The notes under the pieces are model-generated. The model was not told the origin of the DNA and did no database searches. It saw nothing but the letters and a program-made list of their open reading frames with translations. A DNA stretch of 64,000 nucleotides from Candidatus Saccharimonadales bacterium. Its GTDB lineage: Bacteria > Patescibacteriota > Saccharimonadia > Saccharimonadales > 2-12-FULL-41-12. The position numbers and the translations under genes are program-made. Numbering within the stretch: position 1 is the stretch's first letter; every line of letters starts with the position of its first letter. The stretch is taken from NCBI GenBank assembly GCA_036276755.1, contig DASUOG010000005.1, positions 13,777 to 77,776 of the forward strand, written 5' to 3'. Positions 2,477-37,329 of the stretch are shown one piece after another.

Positions 2477-5400
2477 CTATACTCATCCCAGGATTTGACG
2501 GCGATATGTTGCAGTTTTTTCTGGCCAAGGCATCTTAGGAGCAGCCTGGCCGTCTCGGCATTGGTCATCAGCGGGATATGATGGTCTATCGTCAACCGGC
2601 GTATCTCATAAGCATCCTGTGCCCTTTCATCAGCATGGTATGGAACACATACCACAAGATCCAACTTGCGTTTAGCGATATATTCGGCCAGCGAATGTGT
2701 TTTATGTTCTTTGATTTTGCTCAGTTGCTTGGATGGTATGCCGTGGTCGCGCAGGAATTTGTGCGTACCGGGGGTGGCGAAAAGTTTATAGCCTTGCTGA
2801 TGCAGTTCGGACAGCTCGTCGATGAATTTGAATTTCTGCTCATCCGGCAGACTGATACAGATATTTTTGCCGGTGATTTCCTGGTCAGTAGCCAGCCAGG
2901 ATTTATAAAATGCTTCGGTGAGGTTATTGCCGAAGCAGGCTACTTCACCGGTGGAAGCCATCTCCACGGTCGCTACGGGATCGGCCCCCTTAAGCCTATT
3001 GTATGAAAATTGCGGACTTTTTACCGCTACGTAATCTAAATCAAGCGTGTTATAGGTTGCTGATTCATCCAGTTCGTCTAAGATGGCCTCTGTTGCCAGC
3101 TGGATAAAATTATGTTTGGTAACTTTGGAAACGAACGGGAAACTGCGAGAGGCCCGCACGTTGCACTCGATGACCTTAATCTGGTTCTTCTTGGCTAGAA
3201 ATTGGATATTAAAGGGTCCGGTGATGTTCAACGCCTTGATGATCTTGGCCGTTATGCGGTTGGTCCTACGGATGGTTTCCAGATATAGATACTGAGCCGG
3301 CAGGGCCACCGTCGCATCACCGGAATGAACTCCGGCGTTTTCGATATGTTCGCTGATCGCATAGACCACTAGCTTGCCGTCCTTGGCGACCCCGTCGATC
3401 TCAATCTCTTTGGCGTGGGTGATGAAATCGGATATCACCACCGGATGTTCAGGCGATAAATCGGCGGCTTTTTGTAGGTAATGTTTCATTTCCTTATCCG
3501 AGTAGACGATGCTCATCGCTCCGCCCGAGAGTACATAAGACGGCCGGATAAGTACCGGATACTCTACCCTCTGGGCAAACTGTTTGGCTTTTTGCAGAGT
3601 CGTCACTTCCTGCCACTCGGGCTGGTCGATGCCGAGCTCTTGCAGCATGCTTGAGAACAACTGCCGGTTTTCGGCGTTGTTGATATCTTTCGGATCCGTG
3701 CCTAATACCTTGAAGCCGCCCCCAGACAGCCTCGGCGCCAGATTGTTGGCTATCTGGCCGCCTACGGAAACCACTATCGGCCGGTTTTTTTCAAATTCGG
3801 CGATGTCGGCTACCCGTTCATACGTTAGTTCGTCAAAATAAAGCCGGTCCGATATGTCGAAGTCCGTTGATACCGTTTCCGGATTTGAATTGATGATTAT
3901 CGTGCCATAAGCGTGTTTCTTGAGTGTTCTTACGGTATTTACGGCACACCAGTCGAATTCCACAGAGGAGCCGATGGAATAAGGCCCGGAACCGAGTGTT
4001 ATGATGCTGTTTTCAAGCGGTTCTACATCATCAAATGTGCCGTTATAGGTGAGGTAAAGATAATTCGTCTCGGCTGAAAATTCACCGGCCAGAGTGTCGA
4101 TGAGTTTGACCGAAGGGCGTATACCGTAACGTTTCCTTAATGCCCTGACCTTATTCTCCTCAGAACCGACAAGCTGTCCTATCGTTTTATCAGAAAAACC
4201 TTGCCTCTTAGCCTTAGTGAGCAGTTCCTTACCGATCAGGCTTGCCTGTTTAAGCTCGGTTTCGGATTTATAAACTTGATAAACCTGACTTAAGAACCAG
4301 TTGTCAATGTTGCTTAAACGATTAACGTCAGCGACGGTCTTCCCTTGCTTAAAAGCATGGTAGATAGCGAATATCCTGCGGTAAGTAGGGTTTTTTATCT
4401 CGTCCGTGTAATTCCGCGCGAACTCATGGGGCGTCATACTCAGTCCGTCGCAGCCGGTGTTCTGCATGCGGATGGCTTTTTGCAAGGCTTCCGGGAATGA
4501 GCGTGCCAGAGCCATCACCTCGCCGACGCTTTTCATTTCCGAACCGATCCGGAAGTCGGAATTCTTCAGCTTGGTCAAATCCCACCGGGGCATCTTGACC
4601 GCTATATAATCAAGCGCCGGCTCGAAGAATGCCGAAGTCTGACCGGTTACCAGGTTTCTGAGTTCATGAAGTTTCCTGCCTAATATAAGTTTGGTAGCGA
4701 CATACGCCAGAGGATAGCCGGTAGCCTTGGAAGCTAAGGCGCTGGAGCGGCTAAGCCGGGCATTCACTTCTATCACCCGGTATTCTCCCGTTTTTGAATC
4801 CAGCGCGTATTGGATGTTGCATTCACCGACTATCTTAAGATGTCTGATGGTCTTGATCGCTATTTCCCGCAGCATATGATACTCATGGTTGGTCAGGGTC
4901 TGGGATGGCGCTACTACAATGCTTTCACCGGTATGTACGCCCATCGGGTCGAGGTTCTCCATGTTACAGACCGTGACGCTGTTGCCGCCACTGTCTCGCA
5001 CGACTTCGTACTCTATTTCTTTCCAACCCTCCAGATATTCTTCAATCAATACCTGGTTGACCTTATGGAATGCTTCATTGCATCTTTGTTTGAGTTCCTT
5101 CTCGTTGTTGACCTTGCCCGAACCCAAGCCCCCTAGGCTGAAACCGGAGCGCATCATCACCGGATAACCTATGGCCCTGGCTGCCTTGACGGCTTCCCGA
5201 GTCGAGTACGTAGCCTTGCTGAGAGGTGTTTTGACACCGATCTTATCAAGCTCTTTTTTAAACAGGTCGCGGTCCTCGGTGATTTGTATAGACTTTATGG
5301 AAGTACCTAAGGGTCTGACCTTGTATCGGCGCAGAACGCCCCTTTCATGGAGCTGCAGGCCAAGGTTCAAAGCCGTCTGCCCGCCGAAGCTGAGAAGTAT

Positions 5401-5637
5401 ACCGTCCGGCTTTTCTTTTTTGATTATCGCTTCGGCATATTCAGGACTGAGCGGCAGGAAGTACACTTTGTCGGCCATCTCGGAGTCTGTCTGCACCGTC
5501 GCGATGTTCGGGTTGATCAGGACGGTCTTTATGCCCTCTTCTTTGAGGGCCTTTATAGCCTGTGACCCAGAGTAGTCGAACTCGCCGGCCTGGCCGATCT
5601 TCAATCCGCCACTGCCTAAAATTAATACCTTTTTCAT
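2473..5637 (-). CDS. carB: carbamoyl-phosphate synthase large subunit
   Basis: 1054 aa. N-terminus MKKVLILGSGGLKIGQAGEFDYSG; duplicated ATP-grasp halves typical of CarB. Confidence 0.95.
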   Translation of the reverse strand: MKKVLILGSGGLKIGQAGEFDYSGSQAIKALKEEGIKTVLINPNIATVQTDSEMADKVYFLPLSPEYAEAIIKKEKPDGILLSFGGQTALNLGLQLHERGVLRRYKVRPLGTSIKSIQITEDRDLFKKELDKIGVKTPLSKATYSTREAVKAARAIGYPVMMRSGFSLGGLGSGKVNNEKELKQRCNEAFHKVNQVLIEEYLEGWKEIEYEVVRDSGGNSVTVCNMENLDPMGVHTGESIVVAPSQTLTNHEYHMLREIAIKTIRHLKIVGECNIQYALDSKTGEYRVIEVNARLSRSSALASKATGYPLAYVATKLILGRKLHELRNLVTGQTSAFFEPALDYIAVKMPRWDLTKLKNSDFRIGSEMKSVGEVMALARSFPEALQKAIRMQNTGCDGLSMTPHEFARNYTDEIKNPTYRRIFAIYHAFKQGKTVADVNRLSNIDNWFLSQVYQVYKSETELKQASLIGKELLTKAKRQGFSDKTIGQLVGSEENKVRALRKRYGIRPSVKLIDTLAGEFSAETNYLYLTYNGTFDDVEPLENSIITLGSGPYSIGSSVEFDWCAVNTVRTLKKHAYGTIIINSNPETVSTDFDISDRLYFDELTYERVADIAEFEKNRPIVVSVGGQIANNLAPRLSGGGFKVLGTDPKDINNAENRQLFSSMLQELGIDQPEWQEVTTLQKAKQFAQRVEYPVLIRPSYVLSGGAMSIVYSDKEMKHYLQKAADLSPEHPVVISDFITHAKEIEIDGVAKDGKLVVYAISEHIENAGVHSGDATVALPAQYLYLETIRRTNRITAKIIKALNITGPFNIQFLAKKNQIKVIECNVRASRSFPFVSKVTKHNFIQLATEAILDELDESATYNTLDLDYVAVKSPQFSYNRLKGADPVATVEMASTGEVACFGNNLTEAFYKSWLATDQEITGKNICISLPDEQKFKFIDELSELHQQGYKLFATPGTHKFLRDHGIPSKQLSKIKEHKTHSLAEYIAKRKLDLVVCVPYHADERAQDAYEIRRLTIDHHIPLMTNAETARLLLRCLGQKKLQHIAVKSWDEYS

Positions 5638-5758
5638 TTTGCGGCTACCCTATTATAATTTTCGGGTTCTTCCCCTTTGCAATCCTCCCACGAACTTCCA
5701 CGGTAGTCATTCATTGGTCCTTTCCGAAGAGCTGGCCGAAAATGTAAAAGCTTTCTGG

Positions 5759-6895
5759 TCATAGCATCTCCACAAATTTATCGAACAACCATGCCGTATC
5801 GGTCGGTCCCGGTGCCGCCTCCGGATGGAATTGGACGGAGAAAAATGGTTTGGATTTATGCATTATGCCCTCGACCGAACCGTCGTTTAAGTTACTGAAA
5901 TACACCCGCCATTCCTTGGGCAGAGAGCGTTCATCTACCGCGTAGCCGTGATTCTGACTGGTTACGTAGCATTTCCCGCTTTCGTTATCGATGCAAGGCT
6001 GGTTATGGCCGCGGTGGCCGAATTTCAATTTATAGGTCCAAGCGCCGGCCGCCAGCGACATAAGCTGGCTGCCCAAGCAAATACCCATGACCGGCTTATT
6101 GTTTTTGAAAAGTTTTTTTATGTTCTTGATGGATTGTTTATAATCGGCCGGATCGCCCGGTCCGTTCGACAAGAACACACCGTCATAATCATCGGTAGAG
6201 AAATCATAATCATAAGGGACGCGCAAGACGTTCAGCTTTCTCGAAGTCAGCGACCTAACTATATTCTCTTTGGCTCCGCAATCCAGTAACATTATGGTTT
6301 TGCCAGCGCCGGGGATCTTATACAGTTTTGGCCGGCCGATTGACACTAAGGGCTTTTTCGGTTTGAAATCCCTGATCGGCTTTTTCGAAGATGTGATTAC
6401 TCCGTTGACCACACCCCTACTGCGCAGATGCCCGGTCAGGGCCCGGGTGTCCACATCAAAGATTACCGGCACCCTCTGGTCTTTGAGCCATTCCAGGAAC
6501 GATCCCTGGGATCGCGGATGGCTCCAGTCTTCAACCAGTTCTGCCAGGACGACTCCGCGAGCATGTATCTTTTCCGACTCCCAGGCTTCTTCATGTACGC
6601 CGTAGTTGCCGATCAAAGGATAGGTGAAAGTAAGTATTTGCTCGCAGTATGAAGGATCCGTCAACGATTCAACGTAACCGGTCATACCGGTGTTGAATAC
6701 TACTTCGCCCGGTTTTGAATCGGTTTGCCATACAGGTACGCGGCCGTGGAACCTGGATCCGTCTTCCAGCATTAGCTGGGCGGGCTTCGATTTAAAAAAA
6801 TCGCCCCCGGGGCGACTTATTATTTTACCGCTAGCTTTTTTGATTGTTTGGCTCACACTCCGATATACACTATCAAGCAAACCCTTCCTGCGCAA
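5759..6895 (-). CDS. carA: carbamoyl-phosphate synthase small subunit (glutamine amidotransferase)
   Basis: 378 aa. Class I glutamine amidotransferase motif GICLGSQ (catalytic Cys) and FHPEA (catalytic His/Glu) in the C-terminal half. Adjacent to carB. Confidence 0.9.
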   Translation of the reverse strand: MRRKGLLDSVYRSVSQTIKKASGKIISRPGGDFFKSKPAQLMLEDGSRFHGRVPVWQTDSKPGEVVFNTGMTGYVESLTDPSYCEQILTFTYPLIGNYGVHEEAWESEKIHARGVVLAELVEDWSHPRSQGSFLEWLKDQRVPVIFDVDTRALTGHLRSRGVVNGVITSSKKPIRDFKPKKPLVSIGRPKLYKIPGAGKTIMLLDCGAKENIVRSLTSRKLNVLRVPYDYDFSTDDYDGVFLSNGPGDPADYKQSIKNIKKLFKNNKPVMGICLGSQLMSLAAGAWTYKLKFGHRGHNQPCIDNESGKCYVTSQNHGYAVDERSLPKEWRVYFSNLNDGSVEGIMHKSKPFFSVQFHPEAAPGPTDTAWLFDKFVEML

Positions 6896-6898
6896 GTA

Positions 6899-7453
6899 CT
6901 ATTCGCGCGACTTTAAAAGCTTGGCAAGCAAACCGGCTATAAACAACATACTCAAGGAGTAAAAACCGACTTCGCCGTACAGCTCGACTTTATAACCTTC
7001 GTTAAAATTCAATATGAAATAACTGATCGCGCTCAACGAGTAAGCGGCTATGCAAAGTATTGCCGTAGCATACAGGGCGCTGCGGCTAAGCAACAGTCCG
7101 GAAACTATAATCGGTATGATGAACAAAAAGACCGCCCGGCTTGCCATGCCTCGCTGGGTATAAACGCTGAATGAGGCCAAAGCCACATCGGCTAAAATCA
7201 TCAACAATAATAACAATTTATGCATCAGAGCATGCCTTGATCTTGAGTGAGCCAAATACCATATGACACTGTTTACGACCAGCAGTGCCGAGATGACCAC
7301 CCATCGGTATAAGACATAATCCGGGGTAATCAATTGCGATGTGTCATAAAGTATTGTCTGAACGATCAATAATATTATGAACAAGAAATGCAGCTGGCTA
7401 AATACAATCAGCCCTTTTCGCAAATTAACCGGTGATTGTTTATTTTTAGACAT
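6899..7453 (-). CDS. hypothetical polytopic membrane protein
   Basis: 184 aa with about five hydrophobic helices. Same strand and close spacing with the next two genes. Confidence 0.5.
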   Translation of the reverse strand: MSKNKQSPVNLRKGLIVFSQLHFLFIILLIVQTILYDTSQLITPDYVLYRWVVISALLVVNSVIWYLAHSRSRHALMHKLLLLLMILADVALASFSVYTQRGMASRAVFLFIIPIIVSGLLLSRSALYATAILCIAAYSLSAISYFILNFNEGYKVELYGEVGFYSLSMLFIAGLLAKLLKSRE

Positions 7454-7504
7454 AAGAATAACTAAGCAAAAGCATTATACAATAGCCCGTTTAATACTGC
7501 TATG

Positions 7505-7900
7505 TCAGTCCATGAGCCTTGACAGCAACGTCAAGATAATCGTGACGACAACGCTTATTCTCAAAGAACCGTTGATCAGACGTTTGGCACACGCCCGGTC
7601 AAGCCGACGCTTATCGCGGCTTATCACATCCTGGGTCTGCCCAACCTCGCCGGACATGTTATATTTACCGGCCTTTGCATAGCCGGTAGCGAATTTATGC
7701 CTGGCTTCATTTAACCCATGTATCGATATGAATACCGGTACCAGCATACTTAAATAAAGCAGGATAGGCACGTTGAAGAAAACCAGCATTATATAAAGCG
7801 CTGTCCCTACGGCCGCTGATCCGTAACCTACTACCTTTCGCCGATAATTTATCTCTTCCTTACCGATATTAACTGAACCGGCTTTATACTGAGATGCCAT
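7505..7900 (-). CDS. hypothetical small membrane protein
   Basis: 131 aa with two or three predicted transmembrane helices. Confidence 0.45.
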   Translation of the reverse strand: MASQYKAGSVNIGKEEINYRRKVVGYGSAAVGTALYIMLVFFNVPILLYLSMLVPVFISIHGLNEARHKFATGYAKAGKYNMSGEVGQTQDVISRDKRRLDRACAKRLINGSLRISVVVTIILTLLSRLMD

Positions 7901-29176: not shown

Positions 29177-29686
29177 TTAGAGGGCGGCTTCCAGGGCAGC
29201 CCACTCCGTGTCCTTGTCATCCTGTGGAACGTTCACGCTGACCTGATCACCCGGTTTGGCCTTAAAATAGGTAACACTGGCTAAAAGCACCCTGTATTGC
29301 TTGTCACCGGCCTTCACATAATAATGACCGTCTTTTAGTTCCAGTTTTCCGACGACTTGTTTTCTCGGTATTGGACCGATCTGCTTATACATGAAGGCGC
29401 CGTCTTCTGAAATAGTAAGTTTCAATATATCGCCCTGGACCAGTTTGGACTTGCTGGCGTAGTTAGCCGGTACCGGGTAAGTCTTGCCGTCGCTGCCTAC
29501 CATGTTCTGCCCGTCGAATACACCCTCTATGACCTTGCCGATATTTTCTTCTACCGCCGCGTTTGTAGCTTCCGGGTCTTCACCAAGCAAGCTTAGGATC
29601 AGCTCCTTAGCTGCGGCAAGACTGGTCTCCGCCTCGGAAATCAAGGTACGGAGTCGTTTTACTTGTTTATCAGGTACATCTGCCAT
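29177..29686 (-). CDS. hypothetical protein
   Basis: 169-aa soluble ORF with no recognisable motif. Confidence 0.35.
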   Translation of the reverse strand: MADVPDKQVKRLRTLISEAETSLAAAKELILSLLGEDPEATNAAVEENIGKVIEGVFDGQNMVGSDGKTYPVPANYASKSKLVQGDILKLTISEDGAFMYKQIGPIPRKQVVGKLELKDGHYYVKAGDKQYRVLLASVTYFKAKPGDQVSVNVPQDDKDTEWAALEAAL

Positions 29687-29805: not shown

Positions 29806-30558
29806 TTATTCTTGTTCGTCAGGGACTTCAAGCATATAGCCTATACCGAATAAGGTTTTTAAAAGTTCTTCTTTCCCATAAACCTTCAGCTTGGTTCTCA
29901 CTTTCCCCACCATAACCCTTAGTGACGAGGTATCGTGTATCACGCCTGTTTCTCCCCATATGGCAGCATATAACTCTTCAGTCGTACAGGCTTGATTGCG
30001 CCTATCGGACAAGAATTTCAAAAATTGTCTTTCTTTGGAAGTGAATCGTTCCTCGGTAACTCCACCGGACACACTTATGTTACCCAGCTCATCCACAAAA
30101 AGATCCTGCACCTGTAAGATATCTTCTGTATATCTTGTCAGTAGCCATAACTCAAATACACTTTTGGTCCTAGCCAATTGAAAAACCGTTTCATTTCTTA
30201 ATTCCTCTACCAATATGACTTTTTCTCCACTTGGTGTACGTAAAACTGGTATGTCGAAGCTATGCACCGCCAGATCTCCTAGGACGGCTACGGCATTTAA
30301 TCTGTGAGCGTGGTCGCTATATATTTTTTCAACTTCAAATTCCGACGATAGCCATATAACCGTTTGGTCTTCTGCAAGACCGTCTAAACGGCTTAGAGAA
30401 TTAGCTGGGATACCTATGCGACCCCGATCGGTTACATCAACATCACACTCCAAACTCATAAGAGGTTGTCCTAGATTGCTGAGTTGAAACCCCATTGGCC
30501 GACGATCCAATCCTGGCAAATCAATCGCATCATAAACTTCTGCAGGCGATACGCTCAT
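29806..30558 (-). CDS. transcriptional regulator with C-terminal OmpR/PhoB-type winged helix (no receiver domain)
   Basis: C-terminal ~90 aa match the trans_reg_C pattern (ERQFLKFL...TTEELYAAIWG...LRVMVGKVRTKL...LKTLFGIGYML). The N-terminal 150 aa are unrelated to CheY-like receivers. Confidence 0.55.
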   Translation of the reverse strand: MSVSPAEVYDAIDLPGLDRRPMGFQLSNLGQPLMSLECDVDVTDRGRIGIPANSLSRLDGLAEDQTVIWLSSEFEVEKIYSDHAHRLNAVAVLGDLAVHSFDIPVLRTPSGEKVILVEELRNETVFQLARTKSVFELWLLTRYTEDILQVQDLFVDELGNISVSGGVTEERFTSKERQFLKFLSDRRNQACTTEELYAAIWGETGVIHDTSSLRVMVGKVRTKLKVYGKEELLKTLFGIGYMLEVPDEQE

Positions 30559-31172: not shown

Positions 31173-31703
31173 TTAACTTATAGTTTCAGCGCGCGCATTC
31201 AACACCTGGAGCACGCCCTTGATGTTGCCGCTCAGTACGGTTACAAACCCTCTCTGCGGCCCGCTGAGCACACTGAGCAACTGCGCACGTAACTGTTCCT
31301 TGTTAGGCAAGGCGGCCAATTGTTTGACGTCCTCGGCTTCCAGGAATTGTCCGTCCATAGTAAGCGCTCCGACAAATTCCAAGGTTTTGTTTGCATTGGC
31401 AAATTTGGCCAAAGCTTGCGCAGGTGCCACTTCATCATCACTGTTGAAGGCATAAACAAGCTGGGAAGTCAGCTTAGCGGTGTCTATATCCTTGTACCTG
31501 GATGAAGATTGTAAGGCCTTGATGACCAAACGGTTCTTTATGACCTTGACGCTGGTACCGTTCGCTTTAGCTTGTTTGCGCAAGTTCTGCATTTGCTTAA
31601 CGCTGGTGCCTTGGTAATCAGCAATTACCGTCAGCTTCGAAGACTCCAGTAATTCGCTTACCTGACTTACTATTTCTTCTTTCTTAGCTTTCGTTAAAGC
31701 CAT
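31173..31703 (-). CDS. rplJ: 50S ribosomal protein L10
   Basis: [19 protein letters not shown]...[18 protein letters not shown]. Directly upstream of rplL. Confidence 0.95.
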
Positions 31704-31899
31704 TTTGATATTCCTTGTTTAGTTTACCTTGGCAGGCTTCGACCTTAGCCGCCAGAAAGTTACCATTAAAAAATCTTTGGCGTGGAACCAAAGACTTATA
31801 ACAAAGCTTTATTTGCCTCGGCGACATTTTCAAGCGATTAAATCGACGTCGCTGTCTTTGGGTAACTATCGACTATAATAACAGATTGAGCCTGTTAAT
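31704..31899 (-). promoter_or_regulatory. rplJ leader region (probable L10-L12 autoregulatory leader / promoter)
   Basis: 196-nt untranslated gap upstream of rplJ with predicted stem-loops (e.g. ccaaagatttttt/aaaaaatctttgg). Position is equivalent to the L10 leader of other bacteria. Confidence 0.35.
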
Positions 31900-34191
31900 T
31901 CAACTTTTATCAAGTTGTGCGAGTTTCTTCTTAGTGTAACGTTCGGCGGCCAGGCGTGTCAGCTCCGGATCATCGCTCATATTGACAAATTTCATGCCTT
32001 CAGCGATCAGGGGATGCTTTTCCGCCACCATATCAAACATTGTCTTGGCAATTTTTCTATAAGCCGGGTGTCCCGCTGAACCGGTTCTTAGCTCTAAAAA
32101 GTGATAAGCCTCCCGGGCGTTGAAAGTCATTTTCCAGCGCATCCGATGGCCCAAAAGTGTCGCATATTGAGCTTCCTGTTCGTAACCGTTTTTCTGCATC
32201 AGACTGTATAATCGCAGGCTTAGATCGAAGCACTTTTCGAATTCGTCACTCAATCCGGCATCTTGGACCAGTTTAGGAACTTCATAGCCGTAACGTGGCG
32301 TGAGCATCTGCCAAGTCAGATCATCTACCATGCGATGTCTCTGCAGATCGCGGAAAATGCCGTAATCGCACAAGATGTCCCATGAATAATGTATTTTTTC
32401 AAACGCCCGGCCCGGCTTGTGACGACGGTTGAATCTTTCGCCGATATAGCTTTGGACGACTTTTTTCTTCTTATTTACCGGCCATTTATCGACTTCTTTC
32501 CTCAGTTCGGTCAATGAAAGGGAACTATGTTCATATAATATATCGGCAGCTATATCCAATTCGTTATGCGGCCAAACACTGACCAGTCTTACGGGTTCGC
32601 TATCTCCACTGATCCTCGATGGCAATAATTCATCGGCTAGAGCCTTGGTATTTTCTCTGGCAAATGCTCTGTAGCCCATTGCCAGGATGCCGCGTTCGTT
32701 AATGTCGACTCTTTCCAAAAACGCCGGTATGGTCTTGCGCGCTTCAACCAGTAGTTTCCTGCCTACCTCGTGCGCTTCAGCCAGATTGTCGCTTAGCAAA
32801 TGCATGATTAGGCTTTCTAAGGCCTGTCCCGATGCGAATATACCGACGGTTGATTTGGTAGCTACCGGCAGGACCGCCCTGGCGGCATCACAAGCCTGGG
32901 CCCTGGTCGCGCCTTTCCAGGCAACGTCGCGCTCACTCTCCGGTACGCCGGAGGTGCTTCTAACGTAATCCGTAAGTTTGGCTACCATGTATGAATAAAT
33001 ACCAAAAATCTTGTCCAGTGCCTCGTTATAAGCCTTTTCAACGTCTTTTTTAAGGTAAGGTAGCCGATGATAACGGTAATTTCCGTGCTCATCTTTTTTA
33101 TCAAAATAGATATAACGCGTTGATTGTTCAAGGTAGGAGGCCAGCCTGCCCCACTCCAGCTTTTTTGTCAGCAGGTTGCTGGCATTCTCTACTACAACGT
33201 GTTGGCCGACCAGCTGCTGAACCGAATCATCGCCATATGCGGTTATGACCTTTTTAAGTAAGCGTTCGTCCTTGGCTTCCGGACTACTGAATTCGTCCAA
33301 GATAGTTACTCTCATATCATCGCCGCGCCGGCTTAACCGGGCCATGGCAGCAGCTATCGTCTGCGAAGGAAGTCTAGTGGTGAAGGCATACACGTCATCT
33401 TGGGTATTGGTCAGAAAGGATTTCAGATATTCGTGCCCTTCGGGTGTGATCCGGGGCGGGGACTCGGTTTTGTCCAAATAGGGGTTACCCTCGTTTTTAC
33501 CTATCTTTTTTTTTAGTTTGTTGCCGTCCGGCAAGAAAACCAGCATGGTTTCCCACAACTGGTCATTGATGATCTTGGTATTTAAAATTTTGCCCGAGCG
33601 CGTGCAGTCTATCTGCTTAAAGTCCTTGGGAAACAACTGGCATAAGTTATCATAAACTTCTACCGATTTTCTAAGATGCTCCAGGCTGCTTTCGTGAATA
33701 TCTTTTGAATTACCCCTTTTGTCGACATTTCTTATCGCTATCTCAGGCGGCACGCGCAGAACAAAAGATATATCAGGCCGCGGTATTTTAAACATCTCGT
33801 ATTCTATCTGGTCCAACCATATAAAGAACCCGCGCCTTTGCTCGGCGTTGTCGAACAGAACGCCCTGGTGAGCCATATTCGACCCACTAAACCTGTCCGC
33901 GACCACTACTTTGCCTTCGGTAAGGGCCTTTTTGATACGCGCCGCGGAATGAAACCGGTCTAGAGCAAAAAACATCGAGGCAGTATACGGTCCGACTGTT
34001 GCGGGGGACCCTAAGTTACCGGCCAGATATTCCTTGATGAAATAGCTGGAAGGCTTGTTGTATTGCGGGAACTGCAAGGCTTCTACTTTGTAGCCGTTAT
34101 TTTGGAGCCTTTCAACAATAAGTTTGAACTGGGTGGATTTGCCTGACCCGTTGGTACCTTCTAAAACGATGAATGCCCCTTGGCTTCGCAT
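31900..34191 (-). CDS. tmk-thyX: fusion protein: thymidylate kinase (Tmk) domain + two tandem ThyX-like (flavin-dependent thymidylate synthase) domains
   Basis: N-terminal 210 aa: P-loop FIVLEGTNGSGKSTQ and LID motif DRFSGSNMAHQG (Tmk family). Residues ~300–520: ThyX block WGRLASYLEQSTRY (compare RHRxASYxxQSxRY) and ARAVLPVATKSTV...NLAEAHEVGRKL. Residues ~560–763: RHR motif LQRHRM...PRY and ATLLGHRMRWKMTFNAREAYHFLELR, i.e. a second ThyX core. Confidence 0.75.
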   Translation of the reverse strand: MRSQGAFIVLEGTNGSGKSTQFKLIVERLQNNGYKVEALQFPQYNKPSSYFIKEYLAGNLGSPATVGPYTASMFFALDRFHSAARIKKALTEGKVVVADRFSGSNMAHQGVLFDNAEQRRGFFIWLDQIEYEMFKIPRPDISFVLRVPPEIAIRNVDKRGNSKDIHESSLEHLRKSVEVYDNLCQLFPKDFKQIDCTRSGKILNTKIINDQLWETMLVFLPDGNKLKKKIGKNEGNPYLDKTESPPRITPEGHEYLKSFLTNTQDDVYAFTTRLPSQTIAAAMARLSRRGDDMRVTILDEFSSPEAKDERLLKKVITAYGDDSVQQLVGQHVVVENASNLLTKKLEWGRLASYLEQSTRYIYFDKKDEHGNYRYHRLPYLKKDVEKAYNEALDKIFGIYSYMVAKLTDYVRSTSGVPESERDVAWKGATRAQACDAARAVLPVATKSTVGIFASGQALESLIMHLLSDNLAEAHEVGRKLLVEARKTIPAFLERVDINERGILAMGYRAFARENTKALADELLPSRISGDSEPVRLVSVWPHNELDIAADILYEHSSLSLTELRKEVDKWPVNKKKKVVQSYIGERFNRRHKPGRAFEKIHYSWDILCDYGIFRDLQRHRMVDDLTWQMLTPRYGYEVPKLVQDAGLSDEFEKCFDLSLRLYSLMQKNGYEQEAQYATLLGHRMRWKMTFNAREAYHFLELRTGSAGHPAYRKIAKTMFDMVAEKHPLIAEGMKFVNMSDDPELTRLAAERYTKKKLAQLDKS

Positions 34192-34250
34192 ATATTCACC
34201 CCAGTCTTATATTACAGCCCACCGGTTAATGGAATAATTATAACTTACAT

Positions 34251-34751
34251 TTAAGCAAATTGCCGTCCGACGATATTTTTCAGGTGTTTTTTGTTGTATA
34301 GTTTATGGCTGTTTTTTTCCAGATAAACTTTTTTGATACCCGCTGCTAAAATAGCATTCCAGCAGGGTTCGCAAGCCCACCAATGCCCCCATAGATACAG
34401 TTCCCCGTCGCTCAGATCCTTTTTTGGATGATTGTGTAGGGCATCCACGATAGCCCGGGGTTCGCTGTGGTTTTTCGGATGACAGCCTTCGCAAAGTTCG
34501 TATCGCTGACCGGTAGGTATACCTTTTTTTACCCGCTCGCAGCCGAATTTATCGTGATAATCACTGCCGTTGGCGCCTCTGCCGATTATCTTCCCCTCAA
34601 GCACTATCACGGAGGCGGTAGGCATGGTCCGATCCAGCGAATTGCTCCTAGCAAATTCCCTGGCCGCACTCATGAACTTATTATCCCCATCGACGTAGTA
34701 AATGGTTTCGTCCTTCGGGATGAACGGATATTTTATTTCAGATTTTGCCAT
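34251..34751 (-). CDS. dCMP deaminase (cytidine/deoxycytidylate deaminase zinc-binding family)
   Basis: Zinc-binding and catalytic motif HSEPRA (H-x-E) and CEPCWNAI (PCxxC). 166 aa. Confidence 0.8.
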   Translation of the reverse strand: MAKSEIKYPFIPKDETIYYVDGDNKFMSAAREFARSNSLDRTMPTASVIVLEGKIIGRGANGSDYHDKFGCERVKKGIPTGQRYELCEGCHPKNHSEPRAIVDALHNHPKKDLSDGELYLWGHWWACEPCWNAILAAGIKKVYLEKNSHKLYNKKHLKNIVGRQFA

Positions 34752-34794
34752 TAACTCTAGTAATTATAAGGATTCTTATCTATAATCACAAGAA

Positions 34795-35631
34795 ATGGCG
34801 AGATTTGATTTTATCTACAGGTCTGTACTGGAAGACCTGATGAATAAGGGGGTGAAGGAAGTAAACAAGCGAACTGGGCATGAAACTAAGGCGCTTCCCG
34901 GAATCAGTTTTTCTATAGACTTGGAAAAAGACGGTTTTCCGCTGCTTGCCTTGAGAAAAATACCCGTAAAATTGTTCATTGCCGAGCAAGTCTGGTTCAT
35001 ATCAGGCAGTAGAAAACCGGAGATATTTTTACGAGACTATACGAAGATTTGGGATGATTTCACTAACCCGGGCGATGTAGTAACCGTAGCATACGGCTAT
35101 CGCTGGCGCAGGCATTTCGGACGCGACCAGCTGGGTAGCCTTGTTAAACTACTGGAAGAGGACAAGTCTTCCAGGCACGGGGTCATAGTAACCTGGGATC
35201 CGGCCAGTGACGGCCTGGGCGGCGTCAGCAAAAGCAACGTACCCTGTCCATTTACGTTCACGGTCAATGTAATAGGCGGTCGGTTGAATCTTATGAACGT
35301 GGTGCGCTCGAACGATATGATCCTAGGTTTTCCGCATGATGTGGCCGGTTTTGCTCTTTTGCAATGCATTTTGGCCCAAAAACTTGGAGTAAAGCCGGGA
35401 ATTTATACGCATACTATAGCGAACGCTCATATTTACGACACCCACTATCACGCCGCCGAAGAACTTATAAAACGTCCGGTTGACTCTGAACCGATAAAGT
35501 TAGAATTGCCCGAAAATAGCTTTGAGAGATCTGAACAAAAAGACCACGGGCTGGTAGATGAAATCTATGCCAGTTTGACTGCAAATTATAAGCCCGGTAA
35601 TAAATTAAAAGACTTGAAAATAATCTTATGA
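34795..35631 (+). CDS. ThyA-family paralog (thymidylate synthase / dCMP hydroxymethylase fold) with Asp at the pyrimidine-specificity position; predicted dCMP (or CMP) C5-methylase/hydroxymethylase
   Basis: Aligns along its length with ThyA. Conserved blocks: KIWDDF (folate-binding Trp), YGYRWRRHFG (Arg pair), catalytic Cys in VPCPFTF, SND...GFPHDV (Asp in place of ThyA Asn177), and AHIY. Confidence 0.8.
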   Translation: MARFDFIYRSVLEDLMNKGVKEVNKRTGHETKALPGISFSIDLEKDGFPLLALRKIPVKLFIAEQVWFISGSRKPEIFLRDYTKIWDDFTNPGDVVTVAYGYRWRRHFGRDQLGSLVKLLEEDKSSRHGVIVTWDPASDGLGGVSKSNVPCPFTFTVNVIGGRLNLMNVVRSNDMILGFPHDVAGFALLQCILAQKLGVKPGIYTHTIANAHIYDTHYHAAEELIKRPVDSEPIKLELPENSFERSEQKDHGLVDEIYASLTANYKPGNKLKDLKIIL

Positions 35632-35653
35632 GGAACATATAGTAGGTAACCAT

Positions 35654-36298
35654 ATGTCTGTTCTAACACGCGAAGATATCCTGAAGTACGTCAAAGAGGG
35701 CGGTCTCGGTTTTAAACCCGGACTCGATTCGTTCCAATTGCAAGCACACTCGGTAGACCTGAGGCTCGGTTTTACGTTTTTAGTACCGAAATCATGGTAT
35801 GTCAGCAAAGCGGGCCGCGAACAGATCCACATGGACTTTTATGCCGCTAACAAAAAAGAACACTTCGACATAGTCGAGCTGGAGCAAGGCCAATTCTTCG
35901 ACTTGCTTCCGGATGAGCACATATTGGTCTCGTCCTTGGAATCTGTCAAATTGCCGGCTGATCTTATGGGGGTAATGTATCCGCGGTCATCCACCAACAG
36001 GAAAGGTATTTCAGTTGATCAGACAGGTATAATCGACAGCGGTTATGAAGGCCAGCTGGTGATCCCGATACGCAATAATACCCAATCGCAAACCGTAAGG
36101 TTATATCCCGGTGAGCGTTTTTGCCAGATCGTTTTCCAACGTTTGAGCGGGGAGGTCAAAGCCCGAAAAAGCCGCTACCACCGAAAGGACATAATCGAAG
36201 GCGTAGACGTGGACAGTCTGGAAAATGAACGCGAAAAAGAAATCAAATTAATAACAAAAGGCGACATCAAAGAGCTTAAGAAGAGCTACCCGGTCTGA
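35654..36298 (+). CDS. dCTP deaminase/dUTPase-superfamily protein lacking the deaminase catalytic Glu (probable dUTPase/dCTPase)
   Basis: Strong similarity to Dcd (HSVDLRLG, VKLPADLMGVMYPRSSTNRKGI, GIIDSGYEGQLVIPIRN). The E. coli Dcd catalytic E138 position aligns to Pro. Confidence 0.7.
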   Translation: MSVLTREDILKYVKEGGLGFKPGLDSFQLQAHSVDLRLGFTFLVPKSWYVSKAGREQIHMDFYAANKKEHFDIVELEQGQFFDLLPDEHILVSSLESVKLPADLMGVMYPRSSTNRKGISVDQTGIIDSGYEGQLVIPIRNNTQSQTVRLYPGERFCQIVFQRLSGEVKARKSRYHRKDIIEGVDVDSLENEREKEIKLITKGDIKELKKSYPV

Positions 36299-36305
36299 AC
36301 CGGCA

Positions 36306-37271
36306 CTACAGCTTGGACGGATCGATAGCTATAGACGGACCCATGGTAGTTGCAGCATAAATTGAACGTATAAAAGCGCCTTTTACCGATGAAGGCTTGT
36401 TTTGCTTAACCGATCCGACGAGTTCGTCCGCGTTTTGCTTGAGCTTCCCGCCACCGAAACTGACCTTACCGACACCGATATGGATAATGCCATTGCCGTC
36501 TACCCGGTACTCTACTTTGCCGGCTTTTGATTGCTCGACGGCTTTTGCCACGTCCGCAGTCACCGTACCGCTCTTCGGATTAGGCATAAGTCCTTTGGGT
36601 CCTAAGATACGTGCATACTTGGCCAATTTGACCATAAGGTTCGGCATAGCTATCAAAACATCGAAGTCGGTTAATCCCTTGTCCAGCATCGCCAGAACTT
36701 CATCTTCGCCGGCGATATCGGCACCTTTAGCCTTGGCTTTTTTGGCATTGGTTTCATCGGCGAATACCGCCACCTTGACGGTTTTGCCGCTTCCGGCGGG
36801 CAATACCACGCTGTCACGTATGTTCTGATCAGCTTGCTTCGGATCGACATTCAGCCTGATGTGCAGTTCTACCGTAGCATCAAAATTCGCAGTAGACGTT
36901 TTGCATGCCAGCTCCAGAGCGTCCGCTAGGTTGTACTCCTTGTCTTTTTCAATCAGTTCGGCTGATTTGCGGTATTTCTTGCCTTTTCTTTCAAGCTTCG
37001 AACGCGGTGGTTTCTGCTGAGGTTTTTTCTCTTTGGCTGAAGGCTCAGATGACTGTGCGGTTTTACGGTCTTCTTTAGCGGTTTTTTCTTCGGTTTCACG
37101 GACCGCCGTGGCGCTTCGCTTGCCGGCTTTTGCCGTCTTTTGCTCTTCTTTTGGCTCTTCAGCCTCAGACTGGGCTTTTTCAACTGCAATTTTCTTTTTG
37201 GCTTCTTGTTTCTCTTCGTCTGCTGCCTGCTGTTTGCTGCCTGCAATTGTCTTTTTGGTCTCTTCTGCCAT
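36306..37271 (-). CDS. rplA: 50S ribosomal protein L1 with ~95-aa Lys/Glu/Ala-rich N-terminal extension
   Basis: Canonical L1 core (VELHIRLNVDPKQADQ...PKGLMPNPKSGTVT). Start placed at the internal ATG (MAEETKK), which is preceded by AAGGAG, rather than the GTG at 37319. Confidence 0.9.
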   Translation of the reverse strand: MAEETKKTIAGSKQQAADEEKQEAKKKIAVEKAQSEAEEPKEEQKTAKAGKRSATAVRETEEKTAKEDRKTAQSSEPSAKEKKPQQKPPRSKLERKGKKYRKSAELIEKDKEYNLADALELACKTSTANFDATVELHIRLNVDPKQADQNIRDSVVLPAGSGKTVKVAVFADETNAKKAKAKGADIAGEDEVLAMLDKGLTDFDVLIAMPNLMVKLAKYARILGPKGLMPNPKSGTVTADVAKAVEQSKAGKVEYRVDGNGIIHIGVGKVSFGGGKLKQNADELVGSVKQNKPSSVKGAFIRSIYAATTMGPSIAIDPSKL

Positions 37272-37329
37272 GATCACTCCTTTCGTGGTGCAGACGTCCG
37301 CCAGCTGGCGGACTCCCACAAAAAATTAA

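Follow-up and report, generated by a model that had tools for sequence, protein, structure and literature searches.

A thymidylate kinase fused to an asymmetric tandem ThyX in Saccharibacteria

The tmk-thyX-thyX gene and its distribution

We investigated a 64,000-nucleotide stretch of DNA (the window) from a Candidatus Saccharimonadales bacterium (GenBank assembly GCA_036276755.1, contig DASUOG010000005.1, positions 13,777 to 77,776 of the forward strand), in which one gene carries a thymidylate kinase (Tmk) domain followed by two domains related to ThyX, the flavin-dependent thymidylate synthase (FDTS). The open reading frame (ORF) encodes 763 amino acids (aa), lies on the minus strand and starts with an ATG closely preceded by a GGGGTG Shine-Dalgarno sequence. 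A database protein identical to its product is named by NCBI 'MAG TPA: dTMP kinase [Candidatus Saccharimonadales bacterium]', dTMP being thymidine monophosphate. The gene is divided as follows.

31900 to 34191, minus strand: whole tmk-thyX-thyX fusion gene, 763 aa plus stop (ORF listing; 100% identical to P0001, the NCBI protein)
33535 to 34182, minus strand: thymidylate kinase domain, aa 4-219, type A as described below (PF02223, TIGR00041, PDB Tmk matches, AlphaFold2)
33406 to 33534, minus strand: Lys-rich linker and N-terminal lead-in, aa 220-262, with residues 223-234 predicted by AlphaFold2 to be disordered
32620 to 33405, minus strand: ThyX-like half 1, aa 263-524, the putative 'C-role' subunit supplying the loop for deoxyuridine monophosphate (dUMP) (Pfam Thy1, Mycobacterium tuberculosis ThyX profile match, residue table)
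33112 to 33156, minus strand: half 1 signature EWGRLASYLEQSTRY, with R, E and S-x-R-Y retained and RH gone (translation, family alignment)
31903 to 32619, minus strand: ThyX-like half 2, aa 525-763, the putative 'A/B-role' flavin-side subunit (Pfam Thy1, TM0449 profile match, residue table)
32329 to 32346, minus strand: half 2 signature LQRHRM with RHR intact (translation; invariant in 100/100 intact representatives)

An earlier note on this DNA had read the frame as an N-terminal thymidylate kinase followed by two ThyX cores. The motif strings that it quoted were all located and their coordinates checked by translation: besides the two half signatures above, FIVLEGTNGSGKSTQ falls at 34129-34173 in the kinase domain and DRFSGSNMAHQG is present in the translation of the 763-aa frame. 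The Pfam model Thymidylate_kin matched aa 10-207 with 96.8 bits (E=1.6e-27). With each piece scanned alone, Thy1 (PF02511, cut-off 24.8 bits) matched at aa ~276-489 with 60.8 bits (E=2e-16) and at aa ~536-727 with 73.9 bits (E=1.9e-20). All Pfam cut-offs are thus well exceeded, and the three-domain architecture, which lies far beyond chance, is confirmed. This includes the second ThyX core, whose absence from a mapping with hidden Markov models had been named beforehand as a possible refutation.

The N-terminal domain also passed the NCBI equivalog model for dTMP kinase (TIGR00041, cut-off 83.25 bits), scoring 86.0 bits with the whole protein and 90.0 with the domain alone, which bears out the claim of a fusion to the next enzyme of the pathway. 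It carries the P-loop GTNGSGKST, an ADRF motif and the LID sequence RNVDKRGNSKD, and it matched Tmk structures in the PDB down to E=7.6e-15, the best relatives being the Plasmodium, human and M. tuberculosis enzymes. By these motifs and scores the domain reads as an intact dTMP kinase.

The long frame could in principle be an assembly or sequencing artefact that joins separate tmk and thyX genes. Two Saccharibacteria loci do hold such genes side by side: L030 has a separate type A tmk (4898-5608) followed by an unfused tandem thyX (5704-7605), and L031 has the same arrangement (5025-5918 and 5959-7611), the tmk lying 40-100 bp 5' of the tandem thyX. However, at least 120 full-length homologues of 759-793 aa share 60-78% identity and the identical Pfam architecture, and they come from many independent assemblies, samples and sources. 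A scan of species-representative genomes, with 35 Saccharibacteria loci among the matches listed, found a fused ORF in ~31 Saccharibacteria species genomes, with lengths of ~690-810 aa (most 764-812). No stop interrupts the linker, which stays in frame, and the gene has a proper start. An artefact is therefore rejected, with a probability that we regard as negligible, and the earlier claim of a true fusion holds. Because of these homologues and of a synteny (rplA ... dcd, then the fusion, ... rplJ) conserved in about 30 Saccharibacteria loci, we conclude that the fusion gene is genuine, conserved in Saccharibacteria and under selection. L030 and L031 are early branches in the Saccharibacteria set, and their separate genes are consistent with an ancestral, pre-fusion state. 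No second Tmk or ThyX homologue was found within the 64-kb window.

Catalytic residues divided between two ThyX halves

Canonical ThyX is a homotetramer whose active sites each combine residues of three subunits (PMC6514825, section 3.1). Subunit A binds flavin adenine dinucleotide (FAD) and dUMP through its RHR motif and contributes Arg199 (R174 in Thermotoga maritima); subunit B binds the FAD phosphates through Ser71 and Arg190 (T. maritima T55 and R165); and subunit C binds dUMP through Ser105, Arg107 and the lid residue Tyr108 (T. maritima S88, R90 and Y91) (PMC6514825). With 222 symmetry, the four sites use subunits (A,B,C), (B,A,D), (C,D,A) and (D,C,B).

We mapped these positions onto each half through HMMER alignments to M. 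tuberculosis ThyX and T. maritima TM0449, keeping T. maritima numbering, and tabulated them in 100 representatives with intact motifs (86 standalone tandem proteins, described below, and 14 fused ones). Half 1 retained R80, E86, S88, R90 and R147 in 100/100 and Y91 in 98/100. It lost R78 and H79; R174 is unconserved (H464 in the fusion protein), and N163 and R165 are mostly S and Q, being kept in ~30/100 and 26/100, a standalone minority. Half 2 retained E58, R78, H79, R80 and R174 in 100/100, R165 in 99/100 and N163 in 95/100, together with a GH near H178, and it lost S88, R90 and R147, which became Q, L and Q. The fusion protein follows this pattern: its half 1 retains R349, E355, S357, R359, Y360, R438 and GDDS with W347 and G348 replacing R and H, and its half 2 retains E598, R618, H619, R620, N691, R693, R702 and H708 with Q628, L630 and Q675 at the S88, R90 and R147 positions. 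Alignment to M. tuberculosis ThyX puts W-G-R of half 1 exactly on R-H-R, and alignment to T. maritima ThyX puts Q and L of half 2 at S88 and R90. These placements agree with the earlier description of WG in place of RH in the first core and of RHR without a Ser block in the second. The ThyX motif is complete only across both halves, in trans. The intact consensus of both halves was found in the fusion protein and in 33/33 informative Saccharibacteria species loci. Judged by the published subunit roles, half 2 appears to keep exactly the A-role and B-role residues and half 1 exactly the C-role residues.

The GDDS of half 1 (aa 320-323; nucleotides ~33223-33234, minus strand) is invariant, and canonical ThyX has G-H53-x-T/S at this place. 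It is the natural equivalent of an engineered H53D mutant (PDB 4kar, 4kas).

Compared with each other, the two halves are about 9% identical and gave a barely significant hhalign match (E=0.0024), in a register that again puts WGR on RHR. The low identity implies an ancient duplication of the ThyX copies, and because the half-to-half similarity is barely significant, internal duplication rests mainly on each half matching Thy1 and ThyX structures. The half 1 profile found M. tuberculosis ThyX (3gwc, E=9.5e-12), and the half 2 profile found T. maritima TM0449 and the ThyX proteins of Helicobacter pylori and Paramecium bursaria chlorella virus 1 (PBCV-1) at E of about 1e-5. A phmmer search of the PDB with the whole protein returned Tmk chains only and no ThyX at E<=0.01.

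The C-terminal 500 residues of the fusion protein belong to a tandem (double-domain) ThyX family. Searched with phmmer among 1.84 billion representatives, aa 237-763 yielded 3,572 matches, 687 of them at E<=1e-30, and the best 150 matches were mostly standalone proteins of 500-600 aa without Tmk. A profile search reached at least 7,828 protein clusters, mostly of 531-550 aa and from Acidimicrobiia and other Actinomycetota, whose names include 'FAD-dependent' or 'alternative thymidylate synthase'; cluster names added Woesebacteria, Dormibacteraeota and one DPANN archaeon. Tandem ThyX was present in at least 596 species genomes in the species-representative scan. Across the family, half 1 reads LE[WRD][GSPA]R.A.YLEQSTRY and half 2 reads FRDLQRHR, and the fusion protein fits all invariant columns of our two family alignments, A3 and A4 (half 1 'LE.GR...YLEQSTRY' plus GDDS; half 2 'FRDLQRHR' plus NAR..ELR..GH). 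The standalone members of A3 (about 525-560 aa) align end to end with the ThyX body of the fusion at 32-52% identity and share the same invariant residues and the same complementary split. They differ in having no N-terminal Tmk and in lacking tmk, thyA and dcd within 6 kb. Since this holds for standalone tandem thyX genes of Acidimicrobiia, the Tmk-ThyX linkage appears specific to Saccharibacteria and other Patescibacteria, plus one representative labelled Dormibacteraeota. The complementary degenerate motifs that the earlier note had singled out are thus real, but they are a hallmark of the standalone tandem family rather than peculiar to this frame. Its description of the architecture as outside the textbooks stands in part: our literature search found no paper on tandem ThyX, complementary half-sites, a Tmk-ThyX fusion or ThyX in Saccharibacteria or the candidate phyla radiation (CPR), but the Joint Genome Institute (JGI) already names the fusion automatically 'thymidylate kinase/thymidylate synthase ThyX'. 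No solved tandem ThyX structure was among the PDB matches of phmmer or of the half profiles. A Chlamydia ThyX of ~529 aa was reportedly characterised by Griffin et al. in 2005 and may belong to the tandem family; if it were a member, the family would already have a validated representative.

Among 50,697 phage records, a tandem-ThyX-like gene was found in one only, the Tunturiibacter jumbo phage Tunturi_5, whose gene (PP885688.1, 46495-47979) is annotated thymidylate synthase and shows 25.6% identity across 90% of the query. Its family may correspond to PHROG 36506 (491 positions). A phage origin of tandem ThyX was considered and set aside, the jumbo phage being the single relative in those records.

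AlphaFold2 predicted the tandem ThyX body as a compact, two-lobed unit (predicted local distance difference test, pLDDT, 89.4; predicted TM-score, pTM, 0.87). All of the top 50 PDB matches of this model in Foldseek were ThyX (probability 1.00, target TM-score 0.63-0.74), and each ThyX chain match spans about half of the tandem query. The compact body and a residue partition that matches the published subunit roles uphold the idea, raised in the earlier note, of a covalent pseudo-dimer with complementary halves.

From conservation and the published roles we infer a half-site model. Half 2 would hold FAD and uracil through RHR and R174 and the FAD phosphates through R165 and N163, and half 1 would supply only the dUMP-phosphate and lid residues E86, S88, R90 and Y91, plus R147. 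Two chains would pair as a pseudo-222 'tetramer', with half 2 and half 2' taking the places of A and B and half 1 and half 1' those of C and D. Such a dimer would have two complete ThyX sites and two dead ones instead of four live sites, because the dead sites would depend on an RHR that half 1 has lost and on a Ser loop missing from half 2. There would be one tethered Tmk for each live ThyX site, a 1:1 stoichiometry per homodimer, and the kinase on its flexible Lys-rich tether would take the dTMP product on to thymidine diphosphate (dTDP). Overall, we consider it probable that the gene encodes a bifunctional thymidylate enzyme typical of Saccharibacteria, consisting of Tmk and an asymmetric tandem ThyX that works as a half-of-sites dimer, with both enzymes predicted to be active.

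Kinase lineages and gene neighbourhood

The kinases fused to this ThyX body fall into two types. Type A, found in the fusion protein, resembles the actinobacterial and eukaryote-like model PRK07933, and type B belongs to classical bacterial Tmk. Against TIGR00041 they score 90 and 107 bits respectively, each exceeding its cut-off. Over the N-terminal ~215 aa in the Saccharibacteria loci (L001-L034), Tmk identity is 60-67% within a type and 22% between types. The ThyX-ThyX bodies, by contrast, are 67-69% identical whatever kinase is attached, and on a rough ThyX tree the two kinase types are intermingled. The pattern points to repeated fusion or exchange of the kinase on one ThyX scaffold, and it can therefore be argued that physical linkage itself has been selected.

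Some of these loci carry an extra free tmk of type B character between rplA and dcd (L024, 4601-5203; L032, 2987-3577; also L006, L018 and L019). In the fused kinase of L024 (5263-7587) the P-loop is destroyed (GIEGQTKDAQ) and the DR motif is missing, suggesting that the free tmk functionally replaces it there.

Three further genes of nucleotide metabolism lie next to the fusion gene in the window.

34251 to 34751, minus strand: gene resembling deoxycytidine monophosphate (dCMP) deaminase, co-directional and 59 bp 5' of the fusion gene (Pfam dCMP_cyt_deam_1, 39.9 bits; PHROG dCMP deaminase)
34795 to 35631, plus strand: ThyA-family gene, 278 aa, possibly dCMP-specific (Asp at the uracil-specifying Asn; PCP for PCH)
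35654 to 36298, plus strand: deoxycytidine triphosphate (dCTP) deaminase gene, dcd, a conserved neighbour of the fusion across Saccharibacteria (TIGR02274, 111.3 bits against a cut-off of 92.8)

Together with the fusion gene, these genes are inserted between rplA (L1) and rplJ (L10) at 31173-37319. The two ribosomal protein genes are usually direct neighbours within the rplKAJL cluster, and an insertion of nucleotide genes between them is conserved across Saccharibacteria (L001-L034). Just 3' of rplL lie two adjoining genes on the minus strand, one for a 250-aa protein (29806-30558) whose sole domain is a C-terminal winged helix of OmpR type (Trans_reg_C), no receiver domain being recognisable, and one for a 169-aa protein (29177-29686) with no Pfam match.

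The ThyA-like protein, in which the catalytic Cys and RSxD are kept, has Asp at the position of Escherichia coli N177 (LGFPHDVAGF against LGvPfNiAsY), PCP for PCH and ANAHIY for GGDTHLY. The Asp-variant signature is common to L025 and to the nearest phage relatives, in Xanthomonas phage Mallos, Rhodobacter phage RcRudolph and Pseudomonas phage PA_LZ02, where the ThyA-like gene is followed by dCMP deaminase and dihydrofolate reductase (DHFR) genes. An Asn to Asp change at the uracil-specifying position switches ThyA-type enzymes to dCMP. For this reason the neighbour possibly does not duplicate dUMP methylation, and instead of a thymidylate synthase it may be a C5-methylase or hydroxymethylase acting on dCMP. 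The pairing of a deaminase with an Asp-variant ThyA mirrors the phage module. The deaminase-like gene is divergent from the ThyA-like gene and its score is weak, far under the ComEB cut-off; its product could deaminate a modified dCMP.

Rival readings and relation to known systems

Several observations weigh against a bifunctional Tmk-ThyX enzyme. The full RHRX7S(X)R motif is absent from each half (half 1 has WGR...S.RY and half 2 has RHR...Q.L), and the protein reaches only 61.8 bits against the 87.9-bit cut-off of the thyX equivalog TIGR02170. Half 1 invariably has Asp for the His of the extended motif (H53 in T. maritima, H69 in M. tuberculosis), and half 2 has no clear match to this His. 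In the full-length monomer model, the kinase is well predicted (pLDDT about 90), residues 223-234 fall below 50 and overall pTM is 0.51, with no defined Tmk/ThyX interface. Several Saccharibacteria hold a free tmk-like gene nearby. Finally, the ThyX catalytic residues have decayed in both halves of 26 of the 40 Tmk-fused representatives taken at 50% identity.

As the full-length model has no Tmk/ThyX interface, channelling is without structural support. The kinase would be tethered and not docked, at least in the monomer model, a benefit from proximity or channelling is speculative, and plain 1:1 co-expression is the conservative reading of the fusion.

The replaced H53 bears on the possibility that the tandem ThyX catalyses another flavin-dependent C5-methylation, on a different pyrimidine nucleotide, and that the fused kinase phosphorylates that product. 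The great divergence of the body (no ThyX in the PDB by phmmer at E<=0.01, and profile matches only at E=1e-5 to 1e-11) would also fit such a change, and some ThyX homologues do act on other substrates, for example PolB, which methylates UMP. However, the uracil and phosphate contacts R78, R174, S88, R90 and Y91 are all kept, the fused partner scores above the dTMP-kinase equivalog threshold in two independent lineages, and the conserved neighbour Dcd feeds the dUMP pool. We consider a different substrate highly improbable.

The decayed relatives bear on a different possibility, namely that only the kinase works and the double ThyX is a dead scaffold, for instance a dimerisation platform, with dTMP coming from the neighbouring ThyA-family enzyme or from salvage. 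These relatives are:

Decayed fused relatives, first group: P0133, P0134, P0138, P0144, P0148, P0154, P0156, P0160, P0164-P0168
Decayed fused relatives, second group: P0173, P0183, P0194, P0206, P0218, P0223, P0230, P0235, P0236, P0241, P0250, P0260, P0268

Their Tmk P-loop and [D/N]R[F/Y] motifs are mostly intact, and all 26 are probably pseudo-ThyX scaffolds; with 26 of 40 decayed, a ThyX body can evidently lose catalysis within the fused architecture. Some of them are annotated 'FAD-dependent thymidylate synthase'. A dead scaffold would agree with these distant fused representatives, which lost ThyX residues and mostly kept Tmk motifs, with the NCBI name 'dTMP kinase', with a ThyA-family gene 600 bp away and with a score under the thyX equivalog cut-off. 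Nevertheless, all family-invariant catalytic residues are kept in the fusion protein and in the 33/33 close species loci, which neutral decay would not preserve. Moreover, the ThyA-like neighbour has an Asp in place of the dUMP-specifying Asn and may thus not convert dUMP to dTMP, and ThyA is not nearby in most Saccharibacteria loci. For the protein studied here, a scaffold with a working kinase alone is in our view improbable, if somewhat less so than a changed substrate, and we retain the bifunctional half-of-sites enzyme as the preferred reading. We can offer only tentatively, and with more doubt than belief, a broader account in which the tandem ThyX, after an ancient duplication that freed one copy to become the flavin-holding subunit and the other to clamp dUMP and form the lid, is an obligate half-of-sites enzyme that captured a dTMP kinase at least twice in Saccharibacteria, hands dTMP on directly to dTDP, and has a core that decayed to a kinase scaffold in other CPR.

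Relative to the canonical homotetrameric ThyX of T. maritima (TM0449), M. tuberculosis (Rv2754c), H. pylori and PBCV-1, each half has the same fold and Pfam family, and the catalytic residues are shared, as would be the three-subunit site. The fusion protein differs in having two copies in one chain, each with a partial residue set, and it is expected to form two sites per particle and not four. Its ThyX body is best filed, on these residue patterns, as a divergent, asymmetric variant that would work like ThyX. Thermus thermophilus ThyX (PDB 6j61), which was among the Foldseek matches, also carries an additional domain, but it has one ThyX copy with the full motif, and its additional domain is C-terminal and not a kinase. 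The fusion kinase shares the P-loop, DR(F/Y) and basic LID of dTMP kinases (TIGR00041; PRK07933 subtype); it differs in not being free-standing, and sister genomes carry the classical bacterial Tmk, 22% identical, in its place. The closest functional analogy is the bifunctional dihydrofolate reductase-thymidylate synthase (DHFR-TS) of protozoa and plants, also a covalent fusion of consecutive enzymes of the thymidylate cycle. DHFR-TS is a homodimer and the classic case debated for substrate channelling. It joins ThyA to DHFR and so links cofactor recycling, whereas the present fusion joins ThyX to Tmk and links product phosphorylation. A DHFR-TS structure (PDB 8dae) was among the structural-database matches of the neighbouring ThyA-like protein.

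The component domains each come from well-known families, and the tandem family is large and already annotated in databases. New here are the two Tmk lineages on the same ThyX body, the unfused tmk-thyX neighbours in two genomes, the decayed ThyX motifs in many distant fused relatives, and an adjacent 'ThyA' with Asp that may act on dCMP. The most original elements are the partition of A/B against C roles, the double recruitment of Tmk and the series of pseudo-ThyX decay in related CPR. For annotation, 'dTMP kinase' and 'FAD-dependent thymidylate synthase' each miss half of the fusion protein, and to call the relatives with decayed motifs synthases is probably wrong.

ThyX is an antibacterial target and, owing to its three-subunit sites, a mechanistic curiosity. 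A natural and widespread single-chain ThyX with separated subunit contributions would be a ready-made test of the three-subunit architecture, making tandem ThyX an obvious target for structural and kinetic work. Saccharibacteria are epibionts with reduced genomes that depend on their hosts for most precursors. The apparent repeated assembly of this enzyme from two kinase lineages suggests that it matters to these organisms to couple the making of dTMP closely to its phosphorylation.

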